A stretch of DNA of 64,000 nucleotides. Origin: Nanobdellota archaeon. Lineage in GTDB: Archaea; Nanobdellota; Nanobdellia; Pacearchaeales; JAHJTO01. A model generated the notes under the pieces. It searched no databases. It worked only from the letters and a program-made list of their open reading frames with translations, and was not told where the DNA came from. Shown here in pieces: positions 22,838-56,916 of this stretch. The position numbers and the translations under genes are program-made. Numbering within the stretch: position 1 is the stretch's first letter; every line of letters starts with the position of its first letter. The stretch lies in contig JBHPFA010000003.1 of the NCBI GenBank assembly GCA_042572295.1, forward strand, positions 45,802 through 109,801, read 5' to 3'.

Positions 22838-25800
22838 TTATTTCTTCTTTGTAAAAGTCTTAACTAAGAACGCTTTCCAAGTATGGAAACGCCTTGATTC
22901 CTTTATCAAGCTTAACCAAGCAACGAGTATTAAGATTATTACTAAAATTATTCCTAAAGGAGTGAAAAACATATCAATATAACCTGATACACGAGTAATT
23001 CTAGGAGCAGGTTTCAATACCTTACATACACCACTATCACAATACTTATCTAAAGGACAACTTAAATCAGTATTACATTCAGCATCTTCTAACCAACACT
23101 TACCCTCTTCACATTCATAACCATAAGAACATTCATCATCATCTTCACAAGCTATTGCACAAGATCCATCTTCGAAACATGTAGCTTCTCCTTCACATCC
23201 ACAGAATGAACATTTATCAATAAAGTTTCCATCTACACAATAAAGAGGTTTATTTGGAGAACATGAATCATAATCTGTTCCATCACCACATTCATCAACT
23301 TCACAAACTGTAATCTCTTCAGGCTTACCTCTATCTGTTTCACAATCACCCAAGTCAACACACACTCTTACTTGCTGTCCATCTACACAATCACTCCATA
23401 CTGAACAATCCCAACTTGGACTACATCCACTAGGAGGTCCGTCTCCAGGAACTACAACTGCTTCATCAGCATCACAAACAGCATCTATTCCATCTGCATC
23501 TATATCTTGACCAGTATTGGTTTGATTAGGACAGCTATCACAAGCTAAAGATCCTCCATATAACGAAGTATACATTCCTTCAGTCTCTCCATCTGAATCA
23601 AAATCAGCTTTCGCACAAGTCCATCCACTACCAGAACTTGTAAAATCATTACAAACATAAAACACCTTCTCATAAGAATCAACAAAATTCCCTTCACCAT
23701 CACTTATATTTGCACTTAGCCTATACATATTATCTAATGAAGGAACAGTCAAACTACCATTACATATTGCAAGATTCCCAGATCCTGTATTTGAAACACT
23801 TCCTACTGACACAATATCATTGCTTGCATTCTTCAAAGTATAATCACAAGTTGAAGCAAAATCAGAATCTCCTTCAAAATAATGACTAAACACTAAACCA
23901 TCAGTCCAATTATAGAAAGGAGTTGTCCTATCTATTGAAGAGCTAAACTTCTTTGGATAAACATCTACAGAAAACAATTGAGACAAAGCCCATGAACCAG
24001 TATTTCCAGCACCATCAACAGCCCTTACAGAGAAATTATAATTCGTATCACTCACAACATTTGATAATGTAATCAAACAAGTTCCACTTGAACTTTCATA
24101 AACAGTTCCACTCACATTTACAGCACATTTACATATTCCTGAACCATCACTGTTAGGAACAATTCTTAATTTCAAAGATCCTTCATATTCAATATCTCCA
24201 TCTCCAGGTTCAATCTCTATTTCAGCTACAGTTGGAGCAGTATTTTCATAAACAACTGCAGTCAAAGAAGCTTCACCACTTTCTGAATATCCTCCTTCAA
24301 GATTTGCCATAGTTACAGGATAACTATTGCTTTGCGCAGAACCTAAACCAGCACAAGTCAATGTAATATCAAATCCAGATAAAAGATTTGATGGATTATA
24401 TTGAGCAGGATCATTCTGTATCTGTCCTACATTAGATTGAGAAGCGACCCACTTCAATCCACTTGTCCCACTTATGTTACAAGTAGTTGCATTATAAGGG
24501 AAATACGCACCAGAATCAGTAGCATCTCCAAAGGTTATAGTAATAACTCCATAATTCCCAGTTCCTACAAGTCTAGCAGTATAATTAGTATTAACATAAT
24601 GCTTTGTTAAATGACTCACACTTACAGAAGAACTACTTATTTGAGTTGAAGAAGTATTTAGAGGAACTGTTATACAAGAAGAAGTGCTCCAACTACTAGC
24701 ACAGCTTCCCACACCAATACAATCAGTATCAGCACAGTCTACAGAGCCATCAGCGTCGTTATCTTCATTATCACTACAAGAACTCTCAGTTGTTTGACAA
24801 GTCTCTCCATTAGGGCCTGTGCCACCATTACAATCAGAATCAGCACAATCTACAGAACCATCAGCATCATTATCAAATCCATCATTACAAACTTCACTTC
24901 CACACACTTTTCCAGAAGTTGTGCTTCCTATCTCTCCAGAACAATCAGAATCAGCACAATCTGTATTTCCATCATTATCACTATCTGAACTATCTGCACA
25001 TGAATTCCAAGTCACATTCTCAATAGCATAACAAGGTCCACAAACACCAAACTGTTGTGTACAATCAGGATCAGTACAATCAAGTCCTCCACCTAAACTG
25101 TTATCTCCATCATTATCAATACTATCTGCACAATATTGATAACTTTCACTTAAATCAAACTCTTTAGCATAACATGCTTGACTTGAATTGCTAGGATTAC
25201 TAACCCCCAAACAATCCGGATCTTGACAATCTATATTTGAGGCAGGTCCATCATAAGTTTGATTTACATTATCTAAATCATTATCAACATTATCAAAACA
25301 TTGCGTAACCTGTGTAACACCACTAGCATCTAAGACTTCACTTCCAGGACAAGTCTGTCCTCCAAAAGAAAAATCCTTACAATCATAATCTGCACAATCA
25401 GCTCTTGAGTCATAATCATTATTAGAAAAATCAAAACACCATGAAGCAGTATTATTCTCATAAGCAGGACAAGGTAGAGTTAAAGAAGTTCCTCCAAGCC
25501 CATTACAATAACTTGCATCAGAACAATCAGAACTTGAATCAGCATCATTATCAAAATTATCTACACAAGCAACAGTCCAAGGATAAGTTGCATTATGTAA
25601 GGCATTCACACTTCCATAACCTTCTCCATTATACTCACAAAGATCAGAAGCATCAGTTGCATTCCCTTGCAACAAATCACAACCTAAATCTCCACAATCA
25701 GAGGATCCGTCAGCATCATTATCAAAACAATCATAACAAGTTGTTTCAACAGCTTGACACAAAGCATTTGCACCACTACAATCTACTCCCCCAACTTCAC

Positions 25801-27337
25801 CATCACAATCAGAATCAACACAATCTGAAGAATAATCCAAATCATTATCTGCATCATCTGAACAGGAAGCATCAATAACTCCAGGATAAGTTTCACTTTC
25901 ATCAGTATTTGAAAGTGCATTAGAATCCACATAGATAGGTATTCCTGCAATCAAAAGATCTTCCCCAGACTGAACAACATAAAGAGAAACATTATACCAC
26001 CCACCAGTATATTGAGCAGGATCTAGTTGTACATAGAAAACATAATCAATATTTCCAGTCGCTCCATCTGCATCCTCTGTTTTATAAGAAATTGCAGAAG
26101 TGAACTCATTAGGCATTCCTAAATAACCACTCCTAGTATATTTTCCAGAGCCTGTGAAAGCTAACAGATCAGTTATTGAAAATGAAATAGGATTTGAAGT
26201 ACTATAACCATCTCCTTGTATTCTAAACTTTACAGTTCCGTTAGGTTGTACATATCTTGTATAAGTATAAGTGAAGTCTTGTCCACCAACATTTTTTCCT
26301 TCTGAACATATTCCATCAGTACAGCTTCCTGCAAAAGGGTCTCCTGCATCAGCATGATCTTGACAAGTATAAGTTATTCCACCACAATAGATATCATCAC
26401 AATCAGTATTCCCATTTCCATCATTATCCTCACCATCATGACAATAACCTTCCAGATTCATACCTCTTGACATAGTTACTGAAAAGGCTACATCTCCTGC
26501 ATAATCACAATAAAATGTATTATTGAAATATCTCTTAGGTATTCCTAAGAAACAGTCTCCAGCACGATAAGCATCATCATTTACAGTATCAAATCTTGTC
26601 CAATTATTTCCATGCACATGAATTCTTCCATTCAAAATCCCAAAATTTTGATTCTGAAAAAGTTGATATCCACTACTATTAGTTACAGTACAGTTCTTAA
26701 CTTCCCAAGGCGTCCTCTTATCAACAGAATCACTTGAAGTTATAGTATAATTTAATGAATCATTTCCACCAGTCATATTAGAAGTTATTGTCTTGCTCAA
26801 TATCAATAAACTCTGATTTGATTGTGCAATAGCACAACCCAAAACATCAGTCTCATTTGCAGTCAGGTTAGAAAATCCTATTGTAAACATATGTTTATGC
26901 ATTCCAACTAAACCTGTAGCATTGGGCTCATAAACCCCCTCAGGCCATGTTATATTCACATCATCAGTCAAACTAACAGTAAAATAAGAAGTCTTTTTTG
27001 TTATTCCTATACTATTATTCGCATAAACATTAACAAAATGAGATCCAACAGTTTCAGTATCAAATGTAGTGTTTCCAGTTATAGTTACATTCGTTCCATC
27101 ATCAAGATTATACCAAATATTATCTGCCCCATCAGTTATGAACTCTAAAGAAACATTAGTTGAATTTACAGTGCTTGCGTTTTCAGGAGATACAATCAAA
27201 AGCAAAGGCCTTCCTTCAATAGTAATAAACATATTGAAGTTTTGTTCAGCTACATGCGCTGTCAAAAAGCCTGAAACAATTCCTAATAAGAGGATTGAAA
27301 TTAAGAAACAAAAAACAAAAATATACCCTCTTCTCAT
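22838..27337 (-). CDS. Membrane-anchored Cys/Asp-rich surface protein (1499 aa)
   Basis: Signal peptide, Ig-like N-domain, about 10 C-x-D-x2-DND-x-D-x3-DC-x-D-x2-C repeats, C-terminal Cys-rich modules, C-terminal TM helix and basic tail. TATA about 30 nt upstream. Confidence 0.88.
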   Translation of the reverse strand: MRRGYIFVFCFLISILLLGIVSGFLTAHVAEQNFNMFITIEGRPLLLIVSPENASTVNSTNVSLEFITDGADNIWYNLDDGTNVTITGNTTFDTETVGSHFVNVYANNSIGITKKTSYFTVSLTDDVNITWPEGVYEPNATGLVGMHKHMFTIGFSNLTANETDVLGCAIAQSNQSLLILSKTITSNMTGGNDSLNYTITSSDSVDKRTPWEVKNCTVTNSSGYQLFQNQNFGILNGRIHVHGNNWTRFDTVNDDAYRAGDCFLGIPKRYFNNTFYCDYAGDVAFSVTMSRGMNLEGYCHDGEDNDGNGNTDCDDIYCGGITYTCQDHADAGDPFAGSCTDGICSEGKNVGGQDFTYTYTRYVQPNGTVKFRIQGDGYSTSNPISFSITDLLAFTGSGKYTRSGYLGMPNEFTSAISYKTEDADGATGNIDYVFYVQLDPAQYTGGWYNVSLYVVQSGEDLLIAGIPIYVDSNALSNTDESETYPGVIDASCSDDADNDLDYSSDCVDSDCDGEVGGVDCSGANALCQAVETTCYDCFDNDADGSSDCGDLGCDLLQGNATDASDLCEYNGEGYGSVNALHNATYPWTVACVDNFDNDADSSSDCSDASYCNGLGGTSLTLPCPAYENNTASWCFDFSNNDYDSRADCADYDCKDFSFGGQTCPGSEVLDASGVTQVTQCFDNVDNDLDNVNQTYDGPASNIDCQDPDCLGVSNPSNSSQACYAKEFDLSESYQYCADSIDNDGDNSLGGGLDCTDPDCTQQFGVCGPCYAIENVTWNSCADSSDSDNDGNTDCADSDCSGEIGSTTSGKVCGSEVCNDGFDNDADGSVDCADSDCNGGTGPNGETCQTTESSCSDNEDNDADGSVDCADTDCIGVGSCASSWSTSSCITVPLNTSSTQISSSSVSVSHLTKHYVNTNYTARLVGTGNYGVITITFGDATDSGAYFPYNATTCNISGTSGLKWVASQSNVGQIQNDPAQYNPSNLLSGFDITLTCAGLGSAQSNSYPVTMANLEGGYSESGEASLTAVVYENTAPTVAEIEIEPGDGDIEYEGSLKLRIVPNSDGSGICKCAVNVSGTVYESSSGTCLITLSNVVSDTNYNFSVRAVDGAGNTGSWALSQLFSVDVYPKKFSSSIDRTTPFYNWTDGLVFSHYFEGDSDFASTCDYTLKNASNDIVSVGSVSNTGSGNLAICNGSLTVPSLDNMYRLSANISDGEGNFVDSYEKVFYVCNDFTSSGSGWTCAKADFDSDGETEGMYTSLYGGSLACDSCPNQTNTGQDIDADGIDAVCDADEAVVVPGDGPPSGCSPSWDCSVWSDCVDGQQVRVCVDLGDCETDRGKPEEITVCEVDECGDGTDYDSCSPNKPLYCVDGNFIDKCSFCGCEGEATCFEDGSCAIACEDDDECSYGYECEEGKCWLEDAECNTDLSCPLDKYCDSGVCKVLKPAPRITRVSGYIDMFFTPLGIILVIILILVAWLSLIKESRRFHTWKAFLVKTFTKKK

Positions 27338-27377
27338 TGTAAAGTAAACAATAAAATTATTTATAAAAACCTATCGT

Positions 27378-27926
27378 TTATCTCTTCTTTCTTAACAAGA
27401 ACCACCATAGTAATGCTAATACTACGACAACTGCAAGAAGAACAACTAAAGAATTTGTATCAAATGCTGGCTTCTCTGATTCTTCCTCAGCTACAGGTTC
27501 CGGTGATTCAATAATAACTTCAAAAGCATGATCGAAAGCAAGTCCTAAACTTACCCCACCACCTTCTCCAATTTTTACTGTAGTGAATGAGAATCCTAAA
27601 CTATATTTGTCTTCAGGAAGAGCATCTTCTGGAATAGTGATCAATACATTTACTCCTTCAGTAGTCCCTGCTTTTACCTTATAATCAAGATTGCTGTCAG
27701 TTAAAGAAGCTATTTCCTCTCCAGCAGTTAAGCTTGCCCTCATTACGATATCTTCAGTAGCTCCTGCTTTGTTTGAGATTGTAAAATAAACTTCCTTAAC
27801 CTCTCCAGGAGTCATAACTAAAGGATTAGTATTCCAATGAGGAGTAGAAACTCCTACTGCACTTACAGAAGTCAGTGAAACTATAAACATCAAAAATACA
27901 AATAGTATACATGTTTCTTTTCTCAT
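27378..27926 (-). CDS. Small secreted Ig-like protein with C-terminal TM anchor (paralog of 55393..55926)
   Basis: Signal peptide, G(V/I)STP...PL-x-(M/L)-x-PG motif shared with the paralog, C-terminal hydrophobic helix plus RKKR; SD GAGGTGA. Confidence 0.85.
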   Translation of the reverse strand: MRKETCILFVFLMFIVSLTSVSAVGVSTPHWNTNPLVMTPGEVKEVYFTISNKAGATEDIVMRASLTAGEEIASLTDSNLDYKVKAGTTEGVNVLITIPEDALPEDKYSLGFSFTTVKIGEGGGVSLGLAFDHAFEVIIESPEPVAEEESEKPAFDTNSLVVLLAVVVVLALLWWFLLRKKR

Positions 27927-27942
27927 TTTTCACCTCTTTTAA

Positions 27943-28860
27943 TTACTCAGCATGTTGGCCGCTATCTATAAGCAATGTCCAAGTACTTGAATATGATTGT
28001 TTGATTAATGTAGAAGCTACTTCTGTCAAACAGTAGTATAACTCCTCTTGAGCTCCTGCATATGTTCCTAATTCTCCTCTATCCATTACAGCTCCTGTAA
28101 CATTCTTAAAAGCACTTGGTACTAAAGCTGTTCCATCAGTACATTCAACTAAAGCCCCAGTAGCTGTGTGTGAGGTGAAGTTATTTGCAGGGATACTATA
28201 ACCACCATCTGACTCTCCAACAAGATCTGTTGCATTTACCAGTATTCCTCCAGCAGATAAGTTAACATTTCCAGTATTGTTTAATATAGTTGGTTGATTA
28301 TCAGCCGTATGATTAAATGTTCCAGCTGTCAATCCAGCCCAAGTGATTGAGGATGGAAATAATTTTACAGCTGGTGTCAATGGGAATTCAACAGTTACAG
28401 TATTATTCTGCGCATATACAGAATTATTATCTCCTGCAATGATTCCAATAAGCCAATTGACACTAGCTTTATCATAATAGTTAAATCCATAACTACATGA
28501 GAAATTAGAAGTCTTAGTCCCTATAGCATTTTCAAATTGGCAAGAAGTATTTGTCTTTAAAGGATCTCCAGCAAGGCTGAAGTTCATTTGAACAGTACTG
28601 AGATCTATATCCCCATATCCATCATTATCAAACACTTCAAAAGTCACAGTAACATTTGCTATTCCTTCCTCTTCATGAAGTATAATATCTCCAGTAACAA
28701 CTGTAACATTGCTAATAGTAGGGGGTGCATTTCCTAAAGTAACATTAAAGACTTCTTCAGCAGTCTGCATTCCAGTAATAGTTAACCAATCAAAAAATCC
28801 TGCAGAAACTAATGGGAGCATTAATAAAATCCCAATAACAATTAACACGCTCTTTTTCAT
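27943..28860 (-). CDS. Secreted two-domain beta-sandwich protein (paralog of 55928..56878 and of the membrane-proximal module of the HTH-fused giants)
   Basis: Signal peptide; EEG-x-x-NV-x-V-x-F-x-V-x-D-x-DG, NNTGN and QEELYYCL...LIKQSYS motifs shared with those proteins. Confidence 0.85.
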   Translation of the reverse strand: MKKSVLIVIGILLMLPLVSAGFFDWLTITGMQTAEEVFNVTLGNAPPTISNVTVVTGDIILHEEEGIANVTVTFEVFDNDGYGDIDLSTVQMNFSLAGDPLKTNTSCQFENAIGTKTSNFSCSYGFNYYDKASVNWLIGIIAGDNNSVYAQNNTVTVEFPLTPAVKLFPSSITWAGLTAGTFNHTADNQPTILNNTGNVNLSAGGILVNATDLVGESDGGYSIPANNFTSHTATGALVECTDGTALVPSAFKNVTGAVMDRGELGTYAGAQEELYYCLTEVASTLIKQSYSSTWTLLIDSGQHAE

Positions 28861-28928
28861 TGTATAGTAATTATGATTCTTTTACTTTATAAATCTTTCT
28901 CTGAAACTATTAGCTAAATCAAAGTAGC

Positions 28929-28950
28929 AAAAATTAAAAAAAAATTCAAA
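28929..28950 (-). terminator. Oligo-T terminator candidate
   Basis: T9 and T5 runs on the minus strand just after the stop at 28957. Confidence 0.45.
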
Positions 28951-28956
28951 GTACCC

Positions 28957-31900
28957 TCAATAAATCAGTTTCATCTTAGCTCTAGCATAAACTGTATAGA
29001 TATTTCTTGGATCCTTATCTAATAATCTTGAAACTTCTATATTTGACAAGCCTTTATCCCTTAAGTATATAATTAGAGACTCTAATACACTTAATTTCCT
29101 TTGTCTAAATATACTAATAGGAATAATTACATCAGTCTTTGCAATCTTCAGCTTCTTTCTCTTATTATTGTTATATTGTTTCCATATCGCCCCATCATCT
29201 CTCTTTATTATACTAGAAATCTGACTTAATCTTAAGTCTAAGTTCTCCTTCATATACTTTACAAGTGTTTCTGCAGGTCCCAAGTCTGAAGCGAAAGCAG
29301 TTACTGGGATTATTAATTTCTCTTGTTCCTTATCCTTTATCTTATTGATCTGCTCAACAACTTCATCCAACTCAATTCCATATTCCTTTTTCAATCCAAG
29401 GTCTAATCCCTTCAACAATTTATTCTTCTTGAAATAGACATTGCTTAAATCAATTGAATAGTCTTGTTTGATCAAATCTGTAGGAGTTTCATCCAAATAA
29501 GTAAGCTTTATCTTAGCTCTTGCATAAACTGTATAGATATTTCTTGGATCTTTATCTAATAATCTTGAAACTTCTATGTTTGACAGACCTTTATCCCTTA
29601 AGTATATAATTAGAGACTCTAATACACTTAATTTCCTCTGTCTAAATATACTGATAGGAATAATTACATCAGTCTTTGCAAGCTTCAGCTTCTTTCTCTT
29701 AGTGTTATTATACTGCTTCCATATTGCTCCATCATCTCTCTTGATTATATTAGAGATTTGGCTGAACCTTAAATCTAAATTCTCTTTCATATACTTTACA
29801 AGTGTTTCTGCAGGTCCTAAGTCTGAAGCAAACACAGTTACTGGTATTGTCAACTTCTCTTGCCCCTTATCTTTTATCTTATTAATCTGTTCAACAACTT
29901 CATCTAACTCAATTCCATATTCTTTCCTCAATTCTAAGTCTAGCTTCTTCAACAACTTGTTCCTTTTCTTTCTCTTTAATGTAAACACTGCCAAAGCTGC
30001 AATTACTTTAATATACCAAGCCCTACTTAATGCAGTTGAATAGGCCTGTTTAATCAATTCGCTAGAAGTTTCAGTCAAACAATAAGCCAATTCTTCTTGT
30101 GCTACTCCGCCACCTTCACTCAAATTACCCCTTGTAAGGCTTGATCCTGTAACATTCACAAAAGTATCTTGTATTAAAGAATCTCCAGAACAAGCTGCCC
30201 CCAAATTACTGCTTACACTGAAGTTCTCCGCATATATAATATAATTACCATCTTGTTCTCCAGTCAGATTGACTGCACTTACTGAAATGTTTGATATTAC
30301 AGCATTTCCAGTATGATTTATTGTTAAGTTGCTATCTGGAAGTTGATTTGAAGATCCTCTTGTTATCTCAAACCAATTAATCGAAGCAGGAGACATTACA
30401 ATCGCTGCAAATGATTCATAAGTAAATGAAACAGAATCATTAGTAGCATTCTCCCAACTCTCATCAGAAACTGTTGCTGTAATATTCCAACTTCCAGCTT
30501 CATCAAAATAATACATTCCAACAATACATGAAAAGTTCATGTAATTTCCAGCAGATGAAACATTCAAACATGAAGTATTCTCTCTCAAAGGTTCACTACC
30601 TCTTGAGAAATTTATCTGAGCAGTGCTTACATTCACATCACCAAATCCATCCGTATCCAAAACAGTGAAGTTGACTGAAACATTCACAACTCCTGCTTCT
30701 TCAGGAGTAATACTTGAACTAATCTCAATAGCTGTAATCTGTGGAGCAGTATTTGCAGCTGCCAAAACAGTCAAGTTATTCGAAACATTCAATCCACCAT
30801 CAACTTCCAAATCATTTGGAGTTACCTCACATGTCCAATTTTCTCCAACAGTTGTTTCACTTGAATGTATTGTTGAAGTATTCAAGGAATTATTTCCTTC
30901 CAAGAAATTCTGATAAACTTGTTCAGCAGATAATGAAACATTGTAAATCCTCACACCATCCATCCTTCCAGTAAAAGGCCAAACAGTGTAAGCTGATCCA
31001 GCCCTACCTATAGCAGTATTAGTTGATGATGTAAAAAGTCCAATCTTACTAGCTGCAGAAATGGCAGTATTATCATCTGCTATTCCATTTACATAAAGAG
31101 TTACAGTTCCCTCTGCGGAATCTCTCGTCGCAACCACATGAGTCCATTGACCCAGAGTGATGCTTGTTGTTGTTCCCGAAATTTGAACACATGAACCACT
31201 TTTACAAGATAGGAATGCTGGGCGATTATTACTATCCTTAGCAAGATCATATTGTGCATTCTGTCCAGCTGCATCGAAATTACCTATGAGATGGGTTGTA
31301 ACACTTAATGTAGTATTTATCCAAGCTTCCAAAGTAATTGCACCAGTTATATTCAAACTAAGATCTTTTCCAACATCTATATAATCGGCAGTGAAATCAT
31401 AAGCTCCCCCAACCCTTCCATCAGAAGTCCAAACAACACCACTAAGAATTCCATCATTCCCACTTCCAGAATAATCTTTAGCCACAGTTGAATTCTCAGT
31501 ATCAAAAGGCATATTCAATACAGTTGTAGAAACTCCATTCTTCAACCAATTGAAGATTGGATAAACTGCATCCCCATCTATATCATCTAAGTTTTGAGGA
31601 TAACAAGTCAAGTTCTCTGAAGTGTAATTCGCTCCAGTAGTTGAATTAACAAGAGGATTATCTTGAGTAGGAGCATTATTCCCTTCAGTAGTTTTAGCTA
31701 GCCAACCAATATTTGCAGTATATTCATCTGAAGAAGCCTCTCCACTTCCTTGCTGATAAGTTCCAGTATGTCTTAAAGTTGCACCGCCACTTCCTTGTCC
31801 TCCAAAAATTCCAGTTTGATAAGTAACATTTCCAGTGATATTGGTTCCATAAAGTAAGAATGCTCCAAAGATTAAGGCAATGATTAAGAATGAAAATCCT

Positions 31901-32046
31901 ATCTTAAAACGTCTTTTTCTTTCACGTTTTTCTTGATTTTGTTGTACGTTTCTCCAAAAAGAATTTTGGTAAACAGAGTAGTCTCTCCAGCTGCCTTTGC
32001 TACGAGAAAGACTACTCTGTCCAAAAAATTCTAAATGTCGCGACAT
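28957..32046 (-). CDS. Surface protein with LamG-like domain, membrane-proximal module and duplicated C-terminal tandem-HTH domain (1029 aa)
   Basis: N-terminal TM; LamG motifs (ITLEAWIN, GQWTHVVAT, FTGRMDGVRIYN); WYIKVIAALAVFTL-KRKKR; then two copies of a two-HTH unit (e.g. LSNIEVSRLLDKDPRNIYTVY). Confidence 0.9.
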   Translation of the reverse strand: MSRHLEFFGQSSLSRSKGSWRDYSVYQNSFWRNVQQNQEKRERKRRFKIGFSFLIIALIFGAFLLYGTNITGNVTYQTGIFGGQGSGGATLRHTGTYQQGSGEASSDEYTANIGWLAKTTEGNNAPTQDNPLVNSTTGANYTSENLTCYPQNLDDIDGDAVYPIFNWLKNGVSTTVLNMPFDTENSTVAKDYSGSGNDGILSGVVWTSDGRVGGAYDFTADYIDVGKDLSLNITGAITLEAWINTTLSVTTHLIGNFDAAGQNAQYDLAKDSNNRPAFLSCKSGSCVQISGTTTSITLGQWTHVVATRDSAEGTVTLYVNGIADDNTAISAASKIGLFTSSTNTAIGRAGSAYTVWPFTGRMDGVRIYNVSLSAEQVYQNFLEGNNSLNTSTIHSSETTVGENWTCEVTPNDLEVDGGLNVSNNLTVLAAANTAPQITAIEISSSITPEEAGVVNVSVNFTVLDTDGFGDVNVSTAQINFSRGSEPLRENTSCLNVSSAGNYMNFSCIVGMYYFDEAGSWNITATVSDESWENATNDSVSFTYESFAAIVMSPASINWFEITRGSSNQLPDSNLTINHTGNAVISNISVSAVNLTGEQDGNYIIYAENFSVSSNLGAACSGDSLIQDTFVNVTGSSLTRGNLSEGGGVAQEELAYCLTETSSELIKQAYSTALSRAWYIKVIAALAVFTLKRKKRNKLLKKLDLELRKEYGIELDEVVEQINKIKDKGQEKLTIPVTVFASDLGPAETLVKYMKENLDLRFSQISNIIKRDDGAIWKQYNNTKRKKLKLAKTDVIIPISIFRQRKLSVLESLIIYLRDKGLSNIEVSRLLDKDPRNIYTVYARAKIKLTYLDETPTDLIKQDYSIDLSNVYFKKNKLLKGLDLGLKKEYGIELDEVVEQINKIKDKEQEKLIIPVTAFASDLGPAETLVKYMKENLDLRLSQISSIIKRDDGAIWKQYNNNKRKKLKIAKTDVIIPISIFRQRKLSVLESLIIYLRDKGLSNIEVSRLLDKDPRNIYTVYARAKMKLIY
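28974..29964 (-). repeat. Intragenic duplication (period 537 bp) of the tandem-HTH unit
   Basis: 28974-29427 and 29511-29964 are near-identical at a constant 537-nt (179-codon) offset. Confidence 0.92.
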
Positions 32047-32073: not shown

Positions 32074-32164
32074 TATTATGTATGATTTTTACCCTTAAAA
32101 AGGTGCGTATTATGTATGATATAAAGAAGACAAATTAAGCCTTAAAACACGTAATATGTATGAT
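32074..32164 (-). promoter_or_regulatory. Promoter with three copies of 13-bp motif TAWTATGTATGAT (plus-strand reading)
   Basis: Copies at 32074-32086, 32108-32120 and 32152-32164; minus-strand TATA TTTTTAAG starts at 32101. Confidence 0.8.
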
Positions 32165-40225: not shown

Positions 40226-40274
40226 AATACTCACTGATTCCTCACTAATCAGTGAGGAATATTAGGTATTTAAA
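40226..40274 (-). promoter_or_regulatory. RHH operon promoter with inverted-repeat operator
   Basis: ATTCCTCACT-AATC-AGTGAGGAAT (40237-40260) plus an extra CTCACTGATT site; minus-strand TATA TTTAAATA starts at 40274. Confidence 0.75.
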
Positions 40275-43200
40275 GGTTTTCCTTTTTCTTTAACTTATCT
40301 CCTGCTCTTTTGAATAGTGTATAGATATTTCTTGGATCTCTATCCAACATCTTAGCTATCTCTACATTACTTAATCCTTCTTTTCTTAAGTGTAAAGTCA
40401 GACTTTCCAAGATACTTAATCTTCTATCACTGAATATCGAGACTGGAACTTCTAATTCCCCTTTCTTAACAATTAATTTCTCTCTTCTCTTAGAAGCATT
40501 CTGATAAGTTGTCCATATACTTCTGTCATTTCTATTCAACACTTTAGCAATTTCACTTAATTTCAAATCAAACTCTTCCTTCATATATCTAACAACTAAT
40601 TCTGCAGGACTTATATTGGATTTGAACAACGAAATAGGTATTGTTCTCCTTTCTTCCTCTCTTAAAGTCATCGCTGAAGAAACCAACTCTTCAGGACTCA
40701 ATCCATAGACTTCTCTTAATTCTCTCAAAGCCTTTAATACTCTCTTTTTCCTCTTAGTCTTTAATGTAAACACTGCCAATGCTGCAATTATCTTAATATA
40801 CCAAGCTCTGCTTAATGCAGTTGAATAAGCTTGTTTAATCAAATCAGCAGAAGTTTCAGTTAAACAATAAGCTAATTCTTCTTGTGCTGTTCCTCCACCT
40901 TCACTCAAATTACCTCTTGTAAGACTTGATCCAGTAACATTCACAAAAGTATCTTGTACTAAAGAATCTCCAGAACAAGCTGCTGCTAAATTACTGCTTA
41001 CACTGAAATTCTCCGCATATATAATATAATTACCATCTTGTTCTCCAGTCAAGTTGACTGCACTTACCGAGATGTTTGAGATTACAGCATTTCCAGTATG
41101 ATTTATTGTTAAATTGCTATCTGGAAGTTGATTTGAGGATCCCCTGACTATTTCAAACCAATTGATCGAAGCAGGAGACATCACTATTGCTGGAAATGAT
41201 TCATAAGTGAAACTTACAGTATCATTAGTTGCATTCTCCCAACTCTCATCAGAAACTGTTGCTGTAATATTCCAACTTCCAGCTTCATCAAAATACCACA
41301 TTCCAACAGTACAAGTAAAGTTGATATAATTGCCACTTGATGAACCACTTGAACAAGAAGTATTCTCTCTCAAAGGTTCAATTCCCCTTGTAAAATTAAC
41401 AGCAGCAGTACTTACATTCACATCTGCAAATCCCTCTGTATCTAAAACTGTAAAGTTGACTGAAACATTCACAACTCCTGCTTCTTCAGGAGTAATACTT
41501 GAACCAACAAATATTTGAGTTATTTGTGGAGCAGCATTTAAAGGTCCTAAAACTTCCAAAGCTGTTGAATTAGACATATTCCCTACATCTTCCAAATCAC
41601 TAGGAGTAACTTCACACGCCCACTCTTCTCCAGCCGAAGTTAAATCAGAGGTTAAAGTGCTTGAATTAAAATATTCAGTTGCTTCATTATATAACAAAGC
41701 AACTTGTGAATCACTTAAAGTTTTATTATAAAGAACAACTTTTCCAAGAGTTCCATTAAATGCTGAACTTCCAGTATTAGTTGCACCAATATAAAAATCT
41801 ACCCCTACATTGACTAAATCAGCAACCTTATTTCCTACATTGTTATCCAAACTCCCATTGATATAGAACTTAATATTACTCCCATTATAAGTAGCAACTA
41901 TATGATTCCAAACATTATTATTTACAGTTCCAATAGAGTCTGCCGATACAGTATCTGTCGCCCCATCTCCAAGTATAAGTCTAACTTGATCTGAAGTAAC
42001 AATACTCAAACCATACTCTCTAGATCCTGAAGTTCCCCATTTATAAGTCATATATTGAGTAAAACCAGTATAACCTCCTGGTCTAGCCCAAACTTCCATA
42101 GAAAATTCTTCATTCACAAAACTCAAAGAATCATCATCAACAACTTTGATACGTGTTGCATTATATGGATTGAATTCATAAGCCCCTCCTACAAGAATAG
42201 AAGTATTCCATTGAGGATAAGCACCACTTGCACCTAACAAACTTCCATTATTTCCTAATCCAGAATAATCCCAAACAGCATCAGTAGCATTTGTCACATT
42301 ATTATCAAAAGGCATATTCAATACAGTAAGAGAATTTCCATCAACTTTCCAATTGAAAGTTAGATATATCTGATCCCCCTCAGTATCATCTAAATTCTGT
42401 GCATAACAAATGAGATTCTCATTTGTTGTATTATCTCCAGTTGTAGAGTTAAGTATTGGTGTCCCTTGAGTAGGTGCAATATTTGCAGGAATTTGATATT
42501 CATCACTCAATGCAAGATAATCTGTATTGTTTCCAGTCAAGTTATATGCCACATCACAGAATCCATTGGTATTTGCATCTGCACAAGTATCAGAGAATCC
42601 AGTTCCAGAGGAATTTGTCCAATAATTTCCCCCAATCTGCGTTCCCTCTCCAAAAATTCTTGTTCCTGCTTGTTGTGTTGCATTCAAATAATTCACTTTT
42701 GGAGTAGGAGCTGTAACATAATTTGTGTTATTGAAAAGATTGTTATAGACACTATTATTCTGAGCATTGCCGGAGAAATAAATTTCAGGATTATTCTGGA
42801 AGAAAGTATTTCCAATTACCCTATTTCCGTGGGCTGCACTAAACAGAATACCTGCTGAAATGGAATTAGAAATCGTGTTATTCCTTATAGTAGTATTCCT
42901 TACATTAGTCCTCAAATAAATACCTTCCAGGCCACTACTTACAAATTCACTATTTTCTATAGTGTTATTAGAACAACCTAACCCAACATATACTCCATAA
43001 AGATTATTTGAAGAATTTACATTATCAATATGCACTGAGGCAGTGCCTGCTAGTAGGTGTATTCTGTTATTACCAAGAGAATCTGAACCTGAAACATTTA
43101 CATTAGTTATGTTAGAATAATCTGCATCACAAAGTATCAATGAAGAAAACTCTTGATTTTCCAAATTCACAGAATAATTATAGAAACCTATCTGTCTCCC

Positions 43201-46200
43201 TCCAGATCCAGTCATGTTTTCTATTTTGTGACTACACTCAGAAGCAGAATTTGCAGTTAAAATAAGATCCTCCCAGGTACTTTCCTGAACAGTATTATTT
43301 ATTATTTGATTTAAGCTTGAACTTGCAAGGTAAATTCCATAACCACCTTCAAGGATCCTATTGGAGACAATAGTATGCTCTCCTCCACTCGAAATTCTTA
43401 ATCCATAATAAACACTATCATTTATAGTATTATTGAAGAAAGTATTATTATTTCCCAATCTTGATTCTATTCCATATTCAAAGTTCTCAATGATACAGTT
43501 CTTGATAGTTACATTAGTATTTGTAGAAGAGCTTCTTGTTATATTCACCCCATAACTACTAGATGCCCGACTTCCATTGATTAAAAATCCTGCACAATCC
43601 AAAGTCACATTATCTGCATCTATATTGAAACAAGTTTCAGAAGAGCTTACATCCCGAGTCATTGTATAAACTGTATTTGCACTATCCAAATTTCCACAGA
43701 TTCCTGGAACAGTTATACCCTCTTGCACACGATAACTTGTAAAATGGCTTACATTGAACACAAAAGTGCTTCCATCCCAACTTAAATTATTACAGACAGG
43801 AGTTGTTGTTGCATTACATGCTGAAAAACTTCCAGTATCTCCAACATCAACATAAGCTTGAGGTTCTATAAAGCTTAAACCTTCTAAACCTCCTAAAGTA
43901 ATCTCGGCAGAGACATTAAATGGATTAAGCAAAGTAGAGTTTAAGTAAACTTTATTTTGAGTAAGATTAAGATGAGAATTGTTGACTACAGTTCCTGCAC
44001 TTTGAATACGTATCTCTTGAGGATATCTTAAATCAGTAGATCCTTCTCTAAAAGTAGTATTTGCAAATTTAGTGTCGGATCCAATAGCCACTCTGATATA
44101 AGTGGTATTTTCTAAAACAGAAAGTCTGTTGTGCTCAAAATAATTTTGGTTAGAACTGCTTAGGACAACAATTAATTCTTGACCTTCAAGAATGTTTCTG
44201 GAGATATTGTTTGCATAACCATCAATCACAATTCCCCTCTCAGAATTATTTTGTAAAGTATTAGAGGTGACAAAAGAAGAGGTAACGCTCGGCCCTAAAT
44301 AAATACCATCATCATTGTCATATAAAGTGTTATTGAGAACCACTGCATCCTCATTTGATGAAGTAAAAAATATTCCTGAACTGAAATTTATTATTTTACA
44401 ATTCTTTATTGTTGCATCAGCCTTGATAGAAGTTACATTTATTCCTGCACTACCAGCAACTCTGGAACCGGTGATTGTGTATCCTTGACAATCAACAGTT
44501 ATGTTGTTTGCATCGATATCTATACAAGTTCCTGAAGAGGTTATATTGTTCTGTAAAGTATAGACTGTGTTTGCCAAATCTAAAGTTCTCGGACAAGAAG
44601 TTATGTTTGTTGAAGGAGTATCTTCAAATGAATAAGTTGTGAAGCTTGAAACATTAAACACAAATGTGCTTCCATCCCAACTTAAGTTATTACATTGTGG
44701 AGCAATACAAAGATCAAAATTTCCATCATCACCATAATCCACCAGCACTCTAGGATTGGTAAAGCTGGCATTTTCTAAAGTGACTTCAGCAGAGACATTA
44801 AATGGATTAAGCAAAGTAGAGTTTAAGTAAACTTTATTTTGAGTAAGATTAAGATGAGAATTGTTGACTACAGTTCCTGCACTTTGAATAAGTATCTCTT
44901 GAGGATATCTTAAATCAGTAGATCCTTCTCTAAAAGTAGTATTTGCAAATGTAGTGGTTGATCCAACAGCCACTCTGATATAAGTGGTATTTTCTAAAAC
45001 AGAAAGTCTGTTGTGCTCAAAATAATTTTGGTTAGAACTGCTTAGGACAACAATTAATTCTTGACCTTCAAGAATGTTTCTGGAGATATTGTTTGCATAA
45101 CCATCAATCACAATTCCCCTCTCAGAATTATTTTGTAAAGTATTAGAGGTGACAAAAGAAGAGGTAACGCTCGGCCCTAAATAAATACCATCATCATTGT
45201 CATATAAAGTGTTATTGAGAACCACTGCATCCTCATTTGATGAAGTAAAAAATATTCCTGAACTGAAATTTATTATTTTACAATTCTTTATTGTTGCATC
45301 AGCCTTGATAGAAGTTACATTTATTCCTGCACTATCAGCAACTCTAGAACCTGTGATTGTATATCCTTGACAATCAACAGTTATGTTGTTTGCATCGATA
45401 TCTATACAAGTTCCTGAAGAGGTTATGTTGTTCTGTAAAGTATAGACTGTGTTTGCTAAATCTAAAGTTCTCGGACAAGAAGTTATGTTTGTTGAAGGAG
45501 TATCTTCAAATGAATAAGTTGTGAAGCTTGAAACATTAAACACAAAAGTAGTTCCATCCCAACTTAGATTATTACATTGTGGAGCAGGACAAAGATCAAA
45601 ATTTCCATCATCATCATAATCAACAAGCGCTCTAGGATTAGTAAAGCTAGCATTTTCTAAAGTAATCTCAGCCGAGATATTAAAGAGGGTAAGTGAAGTG
45701 GAATTTAAGTAAACTTTATTTTGAGTAAGATTCATATAAGAGTTATTGACTATATTTCCTGAACCAAGAGTTATCTCTGAAGGGTATCTTAATTCAGTAT
45801 AACCTTCTTTAAAAGTTGTATTTACAAATTTATTAGTGACTCCAGAAATCACTCTGATGTAAGTAGTATTTTCTAAGACAGAAAGCCTGTTGTGCTCAAA
45901 ATAATTTGAATTAGAACTGCTGCTAAGGAAAATCGATTCTGGGCCTTCAATAATATTCCTTGAGATATTGTTTAAAGAAGCACTAGCAAACCATATCCCT
46001 TTCACTGAATTGTTCTGTATAGTGTTGGAAGAAATAAAAGAAGCAGTAACGCTCGGCCCTAGATAGATACCATTATCATTGTCATATAAAGTGTTATTGA
46101 GAACCACTGCAGCCTCATGTACTAAAGTAAAAAATATTCCTGAACTGAAATTCATTATTTTACAATTCTTTATTGTTGCATTATTTTTAACAGAAGTTAC

Positions 46201-49200
46201 ATTTATTCCTGCACTATCAGCAACTCTGGAACCAGTGATTGTGTATCCTTGACAATCAACAGTTATGTTGTTTGCATCAATATCTATACAAGTTCCTGTA
46301 GAGGTTATATTGTTTAGTAAAGTATAAACAACATTTTCCGAACCCAAAGTTGTTGGACAGGAAGTAATATTTACTGCAGTGATTGGTATTTCCAAAACTT
46401 CCAAAGCAGTCGAATTCACAGGACTTCCAGCATCTTCCAAATCAGTTGGAATAACTTGACAAGTCCAATTCTCCCCAATAGTGGTCTCATCTGAATGTAT
46501 TGTTGAGGTATTCAAACCATTCAAGCCTTCTTGATAGACTTGAGCAATTTGATTAGCACTCATTGAATAATTGTAGATTTTTACTTCATCAATAGTCCCT
46601 TCATATTGACTACCTCCATCACTAAATTCCCCAATATAAATATTATTGGACAAACCAGTACTTAATGTAGCAGTATTTGATGCATAAACACTTCCATTAA
46701 CATAAATTATAGAGTTAGTTGTATTGTGAGTATAAACTACATGATACCAAGTAGATGTTTGAATACCTATAGGCCCCTCAATGCTTGGATCACCCCAAGC
46801 AACAAACCTAAATCTTCCACCTTGTAAATTTAAATAAGAAGCCAATCCTGAAGTTCCAGTAGGCCCCCATCCAAAAATATTCTGATCATTAGTAACTCCA
46901 CTTCCAGTATGAACCCAAGCCATCATAGTTCTTTCTTCATTACCTCTAGGAAGAGGAGTTTGATTAGCTGCAATAATATAATCTCCACTTCCATCAAAAG
47001 TGTACGCTCCTCCAACTTTTCCATTAGAAGTCCAGACAGCATTTGTTATTGATCCATCACTCCCATAACCAGAATAATCTTTCGCAGTACTAGACTCATT
47101 GACATCAAAAGGCATATTAAAAATAGCATCAGGAACATCATTCTTCCACCAATTGAATATTGGATAAACAGCATCTCCATCTTCATCTGAAAAAGACTGA
47201 GGGTAACAAGTGAGATTTTCACTTGAATAATTTTCCGCAGTTGTAGAGTTAAGTAAAGGTGTTCCTTGTGAAGGAACAAGATTTAATATTGTTAAAGTTG
47301 AAGAATTCTGCCATGCAGAATAATTCTCACCATCATAAGCCCTTGCCCCACAAATTACCCCATCACCTTTGCTAAAGTTTGGTGAATTAAGCAAAACACT
47401 TGCTGCAGAATTATTTGTAACTGAAGTTGCATTCTCTAAATAAACCGAAGAATCATTAACAAACCACCTAAACTCAACAGTTCCTGCAGTTCCTTCTGCA
47501 TCTGTGTAATTAACAGAACAATTCAAAGTAGAGTTTGTGTAAGCAGTACTTGGAATAACAAATGGAAGTGTTGTGTTTGGAGCTACATTTACTACCAATT
47601 CCAAAACTTCCAAAACAGTCGAATTGGCAGGACTTCCATCATCTTCCAAATCAGTTGGAATAACTTGACAAGTCCAATTTTCTCCAAGAGTAGTTTCATC
47701 TGAATGTATTGTAGAAGTATTCAAGCCATCCAAACCTTCTTGATAAATCTGCGCAACTTGATATGCAGATAAAGAATAATTATAGATTCTTGCTTCATCA
47801 ATTGTTCCTTCGAAATAACCGCTTCCAAAACCATACACTCCAACATAAATATTTGAATAAGTTGTACTTAGAGTAGTGGTTCTGCTCGCATAAAGACTTC
47901 CATTAACATATATTATGAGATTAGTCCCATCATGAGTAGCAGCTACATGATACCAAGTGTTTGTTTGAATATTCGCAGACCCCTCAAGACCAGGCTCACC
48001 AATTGCAACAAACCTAATTTTACCACCTTGTTGATTAAGATAAGAAGTATTCCCTGTATCAGTAGTGGGTCCCCACCCAAGAAAAGTTTGATCACTAGAA
48101 ACATCACTTCCAGTATAAATCCAAGCCATCAAAGTTCTAGGCTCATTACCTAATGGAAGATGTGTTTGATTAACAGCAGTTATATTTGCAGTACTTCCAT
48201 CAAAACTATAAGCTCCTCCAACTTTTCCAGAAGAAGTCCAAACAGCATTAGCTATTAATCCATCACTCCCATATCCAGAATAATCTTTAGCTTCGCTTGA
48301 ATCATTCAGATCAAAAGGCATATTAAAAATAGCATCTGAAACATCATTCTTCCACCAATTGAATATCGGATAAACAGCATCTCCATCAACATCTGAAAAA
48401 GACTGAGGGTAACAAGTGAGGTTTTCACTTGAATAATTTTCCGCAGTTGTGGAGTTAAGTATAGGTGTTCCTTGAGTAGGAGCATTATTTGAAGCTCCCA
48501 AAATCTCCAAAGCACTTGAATTAGCAGGATCTCCTGTTTCATTTAAATCAGTAGGAATAACTTGACAAGTCCAACTTTCACCAATAGTAGTTTCCTCTGA
48601 ATGAATTGTTGAAGTATTCAATCCTTCAAGTCCCTCTTGATACAATTGAGCAATCTGTTCCGGGGACATAGAGATATTATATAGCTTAACCTCATCAATA
48701 AGCCCATTAAACCACCTATTCCTTAGAGTATTTCCACCGATCTCCATATAATTCAAAGTCGTGACACTTCCAGGAACATAATCAGCACTTCCAATACTAC
48801 CTGAATTCGCATAAACTATAGCTTTTGATCCATTAACAGTCATAGCAAGTTGATACCAAGTATTCTGTGAAAGTGAATATTCGTCTACAACCTTATGATT
48901 AGTTCCATCTGGAGAGAAAAAAACGTTTAGCAAGTTCTGAGCGTTGTATTTGTATTCGAATGTAAATCCATCATCAGTTGAACCATAATTAGGAAGCTTA
49001 GCTGAAGTAACCATTCTTGGCCAAGATCCAGTCCCTGATCCAAGAGATTTTCTCCAAAATACAACCGTGAACTCTGTAAAATCTCCAAGAACGTGTGAAA
49101 CATTGATATGATCTCCATTTCCATCAAATTTATAAGCTCCGCCCTTTATTCCAGATGAACTCCAGAAAGTGTTACCATGAGGAGTTCCATTATTCCCATA

Positions 49201-52200
49201 TCCTGAATAATCTTTAGCCTCAATTGAACTATTCAAATCAAAAGGCATGTTTAATATTGCAATAGGAACATCATCTTTCCACCAATTGAATATTGGATAG
49301 GCTGCATCTGAAAGGGACTGAGGGTAACAAGTGAGGTTGTCACTTGTTAAATCTGCCCCAGTTGTAGAGTTAAGTATAGGTGTTCCTTGTGTAAGACCTG
49401 TGGGAGATGTTATTGTTAATTCTGAAGAATTCTGCCATTCAGAATAATTCCCTCCATCATAAGCTCTCACTGAACATATTACAGTATCTGCTAAACTAAA
49501 ATTTGATGAACTAAGCAACACACTCGCTGCAGAGTTATCTGCTACAGATGTTACATTCTCTAAATGAACAGAAAAATCATTCACAAACCAAATAAAGCTT
49601 ACATTTCCAGCTGTTCCTTCAAAGTCAGTATAATTCACAGTACAATTCAAAGTTGAAGCTGGATTTGCAGGCGTTGGAATAATCAAAGGTTTAGTAGTAT
49701 TTGGAGCTGCGTTCACAATCTCCAAAACCTCCAAAGCACTTGAATTAGCAGGATCTCCAGCATCTTCCAAATCAGTTGGAATAACTTGACAAGTCCAATT
49801 CTCCCCAATAGTGGTCTCATCTGAATGTATTGTTGAAGTGTTCAATGAATTATTTTCCTCCAAAAATAATTGATAAATTTGTGAAGCAGATAAAGAAGCA
49901 TTAAATATTTTAACATCTCCAAAAGAACCATCAAAAGTATTCCCAGATCCACCAAAATAAGATCCCAAACGAGTATTTCCCCCAATAGCTTTTGGAGTAT
50001 AAGCAATATCTCCTCCAATCTGTTGACCATTTTTATAAACTCTTGCAATAGTTCCTTCAAAGGCAAATACTATATGTTGCCAAACTCCTACATCCCCTGC
50101 AACATTTGTTTCCTTCCAAGCACCATCATAAAACAAGATAGTATCTTCACTACCTACATCCCTCATAGCCAACACTAATCTTCCACTTTCAGAATCTAAT
50201 AAGAAATCAGAATCAGTTAATGAAGTTGGTTTTACCCAAAAAATAAATGTCTTGTCTACATTAGAAGGTATTGAAAGAGAAGAAATAACAATATCATCTC
50301 CAGCATCATCAAAATAATAAGACCCTCCAAACCTACTTGATAAATTCCAAATAGGTCCTGCAATAGTCCCATCAATACCATTTCCAGAATAATCTTTTGC
50401 AGTCACTGAATCATTCAAATCAAAAGGCATATTTACCAATGCAACTGGTGCATCATCTTTCCACCAATTGAATATCGGATAAACTGCATCTCCATCTCCA
50501 TCTGCAAGACTTTGTGGATAACATGTTAAGTTCTCACTTGTAAAGTTTGTTCCAGTTGTAGAATTAAGTATAGGTGTTCCTTGAGTAGGATGAGCTTCCA
50601 AAATCTCCAAAGCACTTGAATTGGCAGGACTTCCATCATCTTCCAAATCAGTTGGAATAACTTGACAAGTCCAATTTTCTCCAACAGTTGTTTCTTCTGA
50701 AACTATTGTTGAAGTATTCAGATTATTCAAACCCTCTTGATACAATTGAGCAATCTGTTCCTGAGACATAGAGAAATTATATAGCTTAACCTCATCAATA
50801 AGCCCATTAAACCACCTACTTGAGGGATTATGACCTCCTATCTGCATATTATTGAAAGTTATTACGTTTCCAAAATCTCCTCTATCTACTGACCCGGCAA
50901 CAGTTGACCCATTATAAAGTGTGGCCCTAGTCCCATTGAAGGTCATAGCGACCTGATACCATACATTATCTGAAACAGAAAATGATCCGACTGACCATCC
51001 ATTTCCATCTTCCTTAAAGCCACCATTGATGATCGATTGACTATTAGTAGAATGTTCAAATGTAAATCCATCACTTGCTGAAGCATAATCTGCAATATTA
51101 CCTGCAGTAACCATTCTTGGGTAATCTCCAGTCCCTGATCCATGAGATTTTCTCCAGAACACAACAGTAAACTCTGAGAAATTTCCAAAAACGTGTGAAA
51201 CATTTATGAAATCTCCACTTCCATCAAATTGATAAGCCCCACTCCTCATTCCAGATGAATTCCAGAAAGTGTTATCCTGCAGAGTTCCATTATTCCCATA
51301 TCCAGAATAATCTTTTGCTTCAGTTGAACTATTCAAATCAAAAGGCATGTTCAAAACTGTTTGAGAGGTTCCATCTTTCCACCAATTAAATATCGGATAG
51401 ACTGCCTCTCCATTAGCATCTGAAAGGGACTGAGGGTAACAAGTGAGATTTTCATTTGTTGTATTCGCCCCAGTTGTAGAGTTAAGTATAGGTGTTCCTT
51501 GAGTCGGTGGAGAATTTAATGAAGAAATTCCAATTGTTAAGGTAGTTGAATTGGCAGGACTTCCATCATCTTCCAAATCAGTTGGAATAACTTGACAACT
51601 CCAATTCTCACCAAGAGTAGTTTCATCTGAAACAATTGTTGAAGTATTCAATCCAGTAAATCCCTCTTGATAGATTTGATTAATTTGATTAGCAGATAAA
51701 GAATAATTATAAACTCTCACATCATCAATTTTTCCAGTGAGTACCCCATCATCCCAACTTTGCTTCCCTATAGTAATATTTGAGGAAGTAGTAGCAAGAG
51801 TTAAAGAAGATTTACTAGCATACTGAGAACCATTGACATAAATAATTCCATCTGTTCCATTATAAGTAAATGCAACATGGTACCATATATTTCCTGGTAG
51901 GTCTGCACCCGTTTGTATATCATAAGCTGATGAAATTCCTACAAATCTAAATTTATTATTATCTGCTGTAAGATAACTACCTTGCCCAGCAATAGGATTC
52001 CCCCATCCAACAATTGTTTGAGGATATCCAATATTAAAATTGGGAGTAATTGCCCAGCCCATCATTGTTCTTGGTTCATTCCCTAAAGGAACAGAAGTTT
52101 GATTATCAACAGAAATACGAACATCATCACCCCTATCTCCACTAAAAGAATAAGCTCCTCCGATTTTTCCATCAGAAGTCCAAGTAGGCCCACTAGAATC

Positions 52201-53856: not shown

Positions 53857-54014
53857 TAATATGTATGATTTTTACCCTTAAAAAGGTTTCTCAAGTAACT
53901 AATTTGTATGATTTAAGACTCCTTACCCCACATCCCACAAATTAGGTCCCTTTCTACCTAATATGTATGATAAACTAGCTTATAAAGATTACTATAATCA
54001 CTAATATGTATGAT
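53857..54014 (-). promoter_or_regulatory. Promoter with four copies of the 13-bp motif TAATATGTATGAT
   Basis: Copies at 53857-53869, 53900-53912 (one mismatch), 53959-53971 and 54002-54014; minus-strand TATA TTTTTAAG starts at 53884. Confidence 0.82.
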
Positions 54015-55344: not shown

Positions 55345-55392
55345 AGTTCCCTCAAACAAAAAAACTATTTAAACATTGTCTTTAGAAAAAAA

Positions 55393-55926: not shown

Positions 55927-55927
55927 T

Positions 55928-56878: not shown

Positions 56879-56916
56879 TGTATAGAGAGCAAACTTTTAT
56901 TTATAAATCTTTACAG

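Follow-up and report, generated by a model that had tools for sequence, protein, structure and literature searches.

The 64,000-nucleotide (nt) stretch of DNA analyzed here (the window; positions 45,802 to 109,801 of contig JBHPFA010000003.1 from Nanobdellota archaeon assembly GCA_042572295.1) carries a gene for a 1029-amino-acid (aa) surface protein whose C-terminal tail holds two successive copies of a unit with a predicted pair of helix-turn-helix (HTH) motifs. A single hydrophobic segment separates this tail from a large ectodomain. The features of the gene and its product are listed in Table 1. Homologues of the 1029-aa protein come from metagenome-assembled genomes (MAGs) of Nanoarchaeota and Pacearchaeota. 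The motif that closes the Ig-like module has invariant Q, Y, S, and W residues in the family alignment, and the copy that precedes unit 1 was placed at 30022-30078 by translation. In an AlphaFold2 (AF2) model of aa 563 to 1029, both units were predicted with a pLDDT of 80 to 91 and the linker between them with a pLDDT of ~30; a fold search with this 467-aa C-terminal model returned weak multidomain matches only.

Table 1. Features of the gene for the 1029-aa protein and of its upstream region (window coordinates)
Feature	Position	Strand	Evidence
Gene for 1029-aa surface protein with doubled HTH tail	28957-32046	minus	One uninterrupted open reading frame (ORF)
Three direct copies of ATCATACATAWTA, candidate operator upstream of the gene	32074-32164 (starts 32074, 32108, 32152)	minus	7 of 8 exact genome matches are upstream of this gene or of the 4525-aa paralogue gene
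Basic N-terminal cytoplasmic stretch (aa 1-46, net charge +7) and first hydrophobic segment (aa 47-66; signal anchor or signal peptide)	31849-32046	minus	Kyte-Doolittle H19 2.38; charge count
LamG-like (Laminin_G_3) ectodomain, aa 220-377	30916-31389	minus	Pfam PF13385, E 5e-22, 79 bits vs 27.6-bit cut-off
Membrane-proximal Ig-like module, aa ~430-675, with C-terminal motif C-L-x(5)-LIKQAYS-x(4-5)-W	30022-30759	minus	Alignment
Hydrophobic segment AWYIKVIAALAVFTL, aa 676-690, putative membrane crossing	29977-30021	minus	Hydropathy, AF2, position
Polybasic cluster KRKKRNK, positive-inside stop-transfer	29956-29976	minus	Translation
Cytoplasmic unit 1, aa 698-850: leader helices and two sigma-70 region 4 (r4)/LuxR-type HTHs (~aa 733-782, 795-849)	29497-29955	minus	AF2, Foldseek
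Inter-unit linker LDETPTDLIKQDYSIDLSNVYF, aa 851-872, remnant of duplicated ectodomain end; hydrophobic core absent after the remnant	29431-29496	minus	Alignments
Cytoplasmic unit 2, aa 873-1029, second HTH pair	28960-29430	minus	93% aa identity to unit 1; phmmer domain E 1.6e-87

The first-pass annotation of this DNA had described a duplicated 179-codon unit at the end of the protein, and the strings that it quoted proved to be exact. A repeat search recovered the duplication as an in-frame direct repeat with a spacing of 537 nt (179 codons), 28959-29258 being 90% identical to 29496-29795; Tandem Repeats Finder did not report the 537-nt repeat because its maximum period is 500. By global protein alignment, copy 1 spans aa 657 to 850 (194 aa) and begins 19 codons ahead of the hydrophobic segment, and copy 2 spans aa 851 to 1029 (179 aa). 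Copy 1 reads LTETSSELIKQAYSTALSR, AWYIKVIAALAVFTL, and KRKKRNK before the HTH part, whereas copy 2 reads LDETPTDLIKQDYSIDLSNVYF and KKNK before the HTH part. The fact that the linker holds a copy of the ectodomain motif indicates a tandem duplication. The idea that unit 2 represents a separate gene, or one fused to this gene, was ruled out, as the linker contains neither a stop codon nor a Met codon and carries that motif copy.

The alignment of the two copies contains a single 15-residue gap, in agreement with the earlier statement that the second is about 15 residues shorter, and it lies opposite approximately IKVIAALAVFTLKRK, the hydrophobic core. Kyte-Doolittle maxima were 2.1 (H13) and 1.5 (H19) for the original segment but 0.06 and 0.04 for the linker of the copy. 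The further claim that the duplication had deleted exactly the hydrophobic segment is approximately right: the core is gone, but ~3 basic residues have been lost with it, and VYF has been retained. At the DNA level, the missing 45 nt align as 35 + 1 + 9 in a region of strong divergence, from which it cannot be demonstrated that the loss was one clean event rather than several deletions.

Across the whole duplicated stretch, DNA identity between the copies is 87%, with 72 differences among 537 aligned bases. The HTH parts, which had been called near-identical, do share 146 of 157 cytoplasmic residues (93%); HTH2 is identical between the copies, and the third helix of HTH1 has one change (T to N). 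In these 157 codons we counted 42 synonymous versus 15 nonsynonymous differences (dS of 0.68, dN/dS of 0.06). The 22-codon ectodomain remnant has a similar dS (0.70) but a dN/dS of about 0.5 (0.51). Thus, both HTH units are under strong purifying selection, while the ectodomain remnant is under relaxed constraint; the remnant has drifted and is modeled as a disordered linker. Synonymous divergence between the units (28960-29955) is uneven, dS falling from 1.2 over the first half to 0.39 over the second, which may reflect partial homogenization, or intragenic conversion, between the copies.

The 856-kb genome contains four units in total, in three genes that all lie within the window: the gene for the 1029-aa protein, a gene for a 4525-aa protein (40270-53847), and a gene that starts at 56917 (56917-63993 in the window) and encodes 3745 aa in the genome. 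Unit 2 was therefore not borrowed from another locus. Among orthologues, the nearest C-terminal homologue is 49% identical and no preduplication allele was found; among 201 genomes sampled from the phylum, just one of the same order carries the unit, once, in an ORF of 1519 aa.

The two sides of the hydrophobic segment differ in composition. The ectodomain (aa 67 to 675, 609 aa) has 31 N-x-S/T sequons, where 12.9 would be expected from composition, together with 8 Cys residues and a net charge of −43, whereas the tail (aa 691 to 1029, 339 aa) has 1 sequon, no Cys, and a net charge of +24. This asymmetry, along with the HTH fold of the tail and the existence of soluble homologues (see below), gives good support to an arrangement with the ectodomain outside and the tail inside. 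Such an arrangement requires a crossing between about aa 657 and aa 700, for which aa 676 to 690 is the only candidate, as no other hydrophobic stretch lies between the glycosylated ectodomain and the basic tail. Across the family, the segment is unusually short, spanning 11 to 16 residues (mode, 15) from the invariant Trp to the basic cluster; nearly all members carry a polar or charged residue at W+3, and I-P-A often stands directly ahead of the basic cluster. A [KR] cluster follows the hydrophobic segment in 68 family members. The H19 values of the segment are 0.9 to 1.5 in the three window genes versus 2.5 to 3.2 for the C-terminal anchors encoded by neighboring genes, and the W-x-h-x-h piece also forms the last strand of free-standing paralogues of 305 and 316 aa. 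A crossing at aa 676 to 690 would therefore be an unusual one, and it is unproven. An archaeosortase-type sorting signal was rejected as an account of the segment, since the 339 residues that follow place it far from the extreme C terminus.

To characterize the unit itself, we modeled it alone, which gave a pLDDT of 89.5, a pTM of 0.81, and two strand-helix-helix-helix-helix halves. With Foldseek, one half matched DNA-binding sigma r4/LuxR domains locally with a probability of 1.0: the LuxR-type domain of RcsB (5vxn_D; root mean square deviation [rmsd] of 0.9 Å over 44 columns), region 4 of SigR (5fgm; rmsd of 1.9 Å, TM score of 0.64), and region 4 of SigG1 (7qh5; rmsd of 2.5 Å over 53 columns). 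For the whole unit, there was no analogue in the PDB at an E value of ≤0.001 (best E value, 0.08). Of 10 small homologues tested, 7 passed the Pfam Sigma70_r4_2 cut-off, with 27 to 38.6 bits. On these models, the unit is a pair, ~150 aa long, of sigma-70 region 4/LuxR-type HTHs and is predicted to bind DNA. Assignment to a known family was less successful. Sigma region 2, which sigma-70 family sigma factors combine with region 4, gave no match, and the sigma70-ECF superfamily model matched only the r4 part, with E values of 0.01 to 0.1. Tfx (TIGR00721) scored 14.2 bits against a cut-off of 60.25 (E value of 0.03), and DUF134 (PF02001) scored 20 bits in homologues against a cut-off of 27 (E value of 1e-3).

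A full HMMER scan of 1.84 billion representatives for the unit returned 1961 proteins, 1429 of them at an E value of ≤1e-10, ranging from 82 to 5919 aa, with the unit nearly always at the C terminus. We looked closely at 156 proteins, consisting of the best 150 of the 1961 matches, earlier matches, and the window paralogues. All members of this set longer than ~250 aa have a hydrophobic segment (H13 mostly 1.6 to 2.8) 25 to 90 residues before unit 1, plus a polybasic cluster. In contrast, small complete members (<240 aa) start with Met and have no hydrophobic segment, which implies that they are soluble and hence cytoplasmic. The unit was present in 105 of the 201 sampled genomes, mostly as stand-alone ORFs of 160 to 220 aa and in up to 10 copies per genome. 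The double-HTH unit thus occurs both as a soluble cytoplasmic protein, forming a common family of small DPANN regulators, and as the tail of surface proteins.

Two units were found in 53 of the 156 proteins. When 206 units were placed in a tree, 30 of 51 two-unit proteins had their own two units as sister tips (support mostly >0.9), which implies independent duplications; at least 11 of these 30 proteins are membrane anchored. Unit duplication, or else intragenic homogenization, has thus recurred many times in the family. The units of two other family members, P0033 (1501 aa) and P0122 (336 aa), are 100% and 94% identical in protein sequence, respectively, so that either the duplications took place very recently or the assembly of those records is at fault.

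Among 21 anchored two-unit homologues, there was no case of a hydrophobic stretch between the units (maximum H13 of 0.7 in the first 19), so that orthologous duplications retaining the segment, which the first-pass annotation had named as a possible counterexample, were not found. A clear copy of the ectodomain motif in the linker was seen only in the 1029-aa window protein among its two-unit relatives. P0004 and P0025 (P0004, L001 33-4358, JGI 3300012931) provide a partial and weaker second case, arising from an independent duplication. The P0004 copy keeps V..A.IP and RKK of the C-terminal half of the segment but in a polar form (FLVAFIPASRRKRKKK to SSVSEASIPERKKVKT), with Phe-to-Ser changes and a two-codon S-E insert.

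The direct repeats upstream of the gene suggest where the tail might bind. Four copies of ATCATACATAWTA lie upstream of the gene for the 4525-aa paralogue (53857-54014), and the boxes of both genes are in gene orientation with a spacing of 34 to 59 bp. The 856-kb genome has 8 exact matches to ATCATACATAWTA, 7 of which are upstream of these two genes, and the two promoters share an identical 28-nt block that includes a TATA-like TTTTTAAG. Upstream of the third HTH-fused gene (L002), the strict box was absent, and there were only variants with two mismatches, not above chance. The evidence that the ATCATACATAWTA repeats are a putative operator bound by the HTH tails is circumstantial.

Taken together, these results suggest, with a probability that we put at about 0.7, that the 1029-aa protein is membrane tethered, that its cytoplasmic HTH tail was duplicated in tandem, that the distal membrane segment was then lost, and that all four HTHs are cytoplasmic and bind DNA. 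In this reading, the gene of a small-genome DPANN archaeon encodes a protein with a glycosylated LamG/Ig-like ectodomain, a marginal crossing at aa 676 to 690, a polybasic cluster, and a cytoplasmic tail. An in-frame tandem duplication of codons 657 to 850 (582 nt), reaching from 19 codons upstream of the membrane segment to the last codon, gave rise to the second unit, and the membrane segment of the duplicate was then lost (45 nt, in one deletion or more). The 22 ectodomain residues left behind drifted into a disordered linker as both HTH units stayed constrained. The duplication with its boundaries, the loss, the pattern of selection, and the HTH fold are borne out by the data, as is the lack of a hydrophobic linker in the anchored two-unit relatives. 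Loss would presumably have been favored, since a second stop-transfer element would export, misplace, or jam unit 2, and only the distal copy could have lost its segment, because loss of the proximal one would leave unit 1 outside. The four HTHs would share one specificity and would probably bind the ATCATACATAWTA repeats upstream of the gene.

A number of observations weigh against this reading. The hydrophobic segment is weak and short, and its AF2 helix (aa 676 to 689) has a pLDDT of only 33 to 41. The protein's own Sigma70_r4_2 score, 22.4 bits, is under the 25.7-bit cut-off. Four HTHs may suit a multi-site operator, as the first-pass annotation proposed, but the number of boxes does not track the number of HTHs, with three boxes for four HTHs in the case of the 1029-aa protein and four boxes for two HTHs in the case of the 4525-aa paralogue. 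Most other duplications in the family begin downstream of the membrane segment and so never had a segment to lose. A 37-nt pattern spanning the junction was not found in JGI metagenome contigs, and no second assembly carries the junction. Finally, of 30 placements of a random 15-aa deletion within the 44 nonunit residues, 6 take out 11 or more of the 12 core residues; with the whole remnant region decaying and ~20% of random placements removing the core, selection for the loss is not demonstrated.

This last point bears on the argument that the first-pass annotation had drawn from the loss, namely, that it supports a real transmembrane segment and a cytoplasmic location for all four HTHs. The logic is sound in that a second stop-transfer segment between the units is incompatible with both HTH pairs lying on one side of the membrane; moreover, the loss is as predicted, and the 21 relatives agree with it. 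However, there is one event, a random 15-aa deletion would hit the core about one time in five, and the segment is only marginally hydrophobic, so that the loss is weak evidence for topology on its own. The argument from composition and homologues is the stronger of the two.

Alternatively, the deletion might have been a neutral accident in an unconstrained, decaying linker (37 to 44 nonunit residues) and say nothing about topology. The dN/dS of the remnant, the broken 35 + 1 + 9 gap in strongly diverged DNA, and the 6 of 30 placements all fit such an accident, as does the possibility that the marginal segment, which in the copy would have had basic residues on both flanks, might not have inserted anyway. 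We nevertheless consider it unlikely, given that none of the anchored two-unit homologues keeps a hydrophobic linker and that the partial segment copy of P0004 has also turned polar; in addition, the units on either side are strongly constrained, so an aggregation-prone or membrane-active linker between them should be costly.

Equally improbable, in our judgment, is that the tail is cytoplasmic but docks a protein partner (e.g., the transcription or secretion machinery or a cytoskeletal anchor) rather than DNA, in which case doubling would mean a doubled docking valency. Sigma region 4 domains also contact proteins, and the joining of the unit to very diverse giant ectodomains (82 to 5919 aa) resembles the use of a generic tail; the lack of a whole-unit structural analogue in the PDB and the failure of box number to scale with HTH number point the same way. 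Set against these are the best local structural matches, RcsB, SigR r4, and SigG1 r4, which are DNA-binding domains, the net charge of +24, the resemblance of the stand-alone soluble homologues to ordinary small regulators, and a repeated box that is almost exclusive to the promoters of HTH-fused genes. Although the 1029-aa protein has no record beyond its one contig and the source is a MAG that is 77% complete, it is very unlikely that the tandem copy arose in assembly, whether by expansion of a repeat or as a chimera of strain variants. The copies have diverged mostly at synonymous sites, the remnant has drifted, and the reading frame runs across the junction uninterrupted by a stop. The rest of the genome contains neither the remnant nor its 45-nt gap. 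To build a tandem join, an assembler would need reads with the junction from the end of the unit to the pretransmembrane region, and two-unit tails are common in the family. On the internal evidence of the sequence, the duplication appears to be real and fairly old.

A wider proposal is possible but doubtful. It holds that DPANN archaea would have a large undescribed family of membrane-tethered regulators, in which adhesin-like ectodomains of up to ~5900 aa are wired via an unusually short membrane segment to a cytoplasmic double sigma-r4-type HTH unit, that the unit would have been duplicated independently many times with any hydrophobic segment copied along with it purged each time, and that a four-HTH tail would have been selected because a single membrane-bound molecule could bridge adjacent direct-repeat boxes of its own promoter.

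The membrane-proximal module and hydrophobic segment of the 1029-aa protein (aa ~443 to 690) are ~90% identical in nt sequence to those of the 4525-aa paralogue (29977-30720 versus 40750-41520), but identity drops to 50 to 66% right at the membrane/cytoplasm boundary, after the hydrophobic segment. This profile looks like gene conversion or module exchange with a tract that ended at the membrane segment. The free-standing 305- and 316-aa paralogues of the membrane-proximal module end at the C-L-x(5)-LIKQAYS-x(4-5)-W motif. The same four-gene order is found twice, at 22838-32046 and 54076-63993, and consists of genes for an HTH-tailed surface protein, a free-standing module copy of ~305 or 316 aa, a C-terminally anchored protein of ~180 aa, and a larger C-terminally anchored protein.

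The duplication amounts to a small natural experiment: selection has maintained both HTH pairs, presumably on one side of the membrane, and the hydrophobic segment that was copied with them was either not tolerated or simply not retained. With regard to topology, the loss adds little to what composition and the soluble homologues already say, and it is a modest evolutionary footnote. We regard the interest of the duplication as moderate to low and that of the family as a whole as higher. Most DPANN archaea are symbionts that have not been cultured, and little is understood of their host contact and regulation. The family is widespread among them, with ~2000 clusters at 50% identity and a presence in about half of the phylum genomes sampled. 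The duplication offers a concrete and testable topology for this family, which may couple gene control directly to giant surface adhesins.

Several known systems resemble the 1029-aa protein in part. One class is that of the transmembrane transcription regulators (TTRs), whose bacterial members ToxR, TcpP, and CadC bear a winged helix of the OmpR type at the N terminus. These proteins, like ArnR and ArnR1, carry on one polypeptide a cytoplasmic HTH and an extracytoplasmic domain with a membrane segment, as the 1029-aa protein is predicted to do. However, ToxR and CadC have the winged helix in an N-terminal cytoplasmic position and a periplasmic domain at the C terminus, whereas the 1029-aa protein has the opposite polarity, its putative DNA-binding part being C-terminal and of another HTH type, sigma-70 r4/LuxR, in two or four copies across the family. 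The ectodomain also differs, being a large, adhesin-like LamG/Ig array that reaches thousands of residues in the family. With sigma-70 r4 and LuxR (GerE) domains the likeness is local: each half-unit superposes on them, and homologues pass the Sigma70_r4_2 cut-off, but the unit lacks sigma region 2 or a receiver domain, packs two HTHs into one compact body, and has an archaeal host. Tfx and UPF0251/DUF134 are small archaeal proteins with sigma-r4-like HTHs that give weak matches, and one homologue is named UPF0251 by JGI; the scores nevertheless fall below the cut-offs, and neither a double-HTH unit nor membrane-tethered forms are features of those families. PGF-CTERM-like sorting signals of archaeosortase substrates share the short hydrophobic segment followed by a basic cluster after a glycosylated ectodomain, but theirs is at the extreme C terminus, whereas here ~340 residues of folded, conserved domains follow.

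TTRs have been reported to be widespread in bacteria and archaea in a survey that does not mention DPANN (PMC10269533), and ArnR and ArnR1 of Sulfolobus are studied archaeal examples (PMC6396743). A literature search found no description of a double-HTH membrane-tethered DPANN family. The family differs from known TTRs in its reversed polarity, in having a double sigma-r4/LuxR unit, and in how large its ectodomains are and what they consist of.

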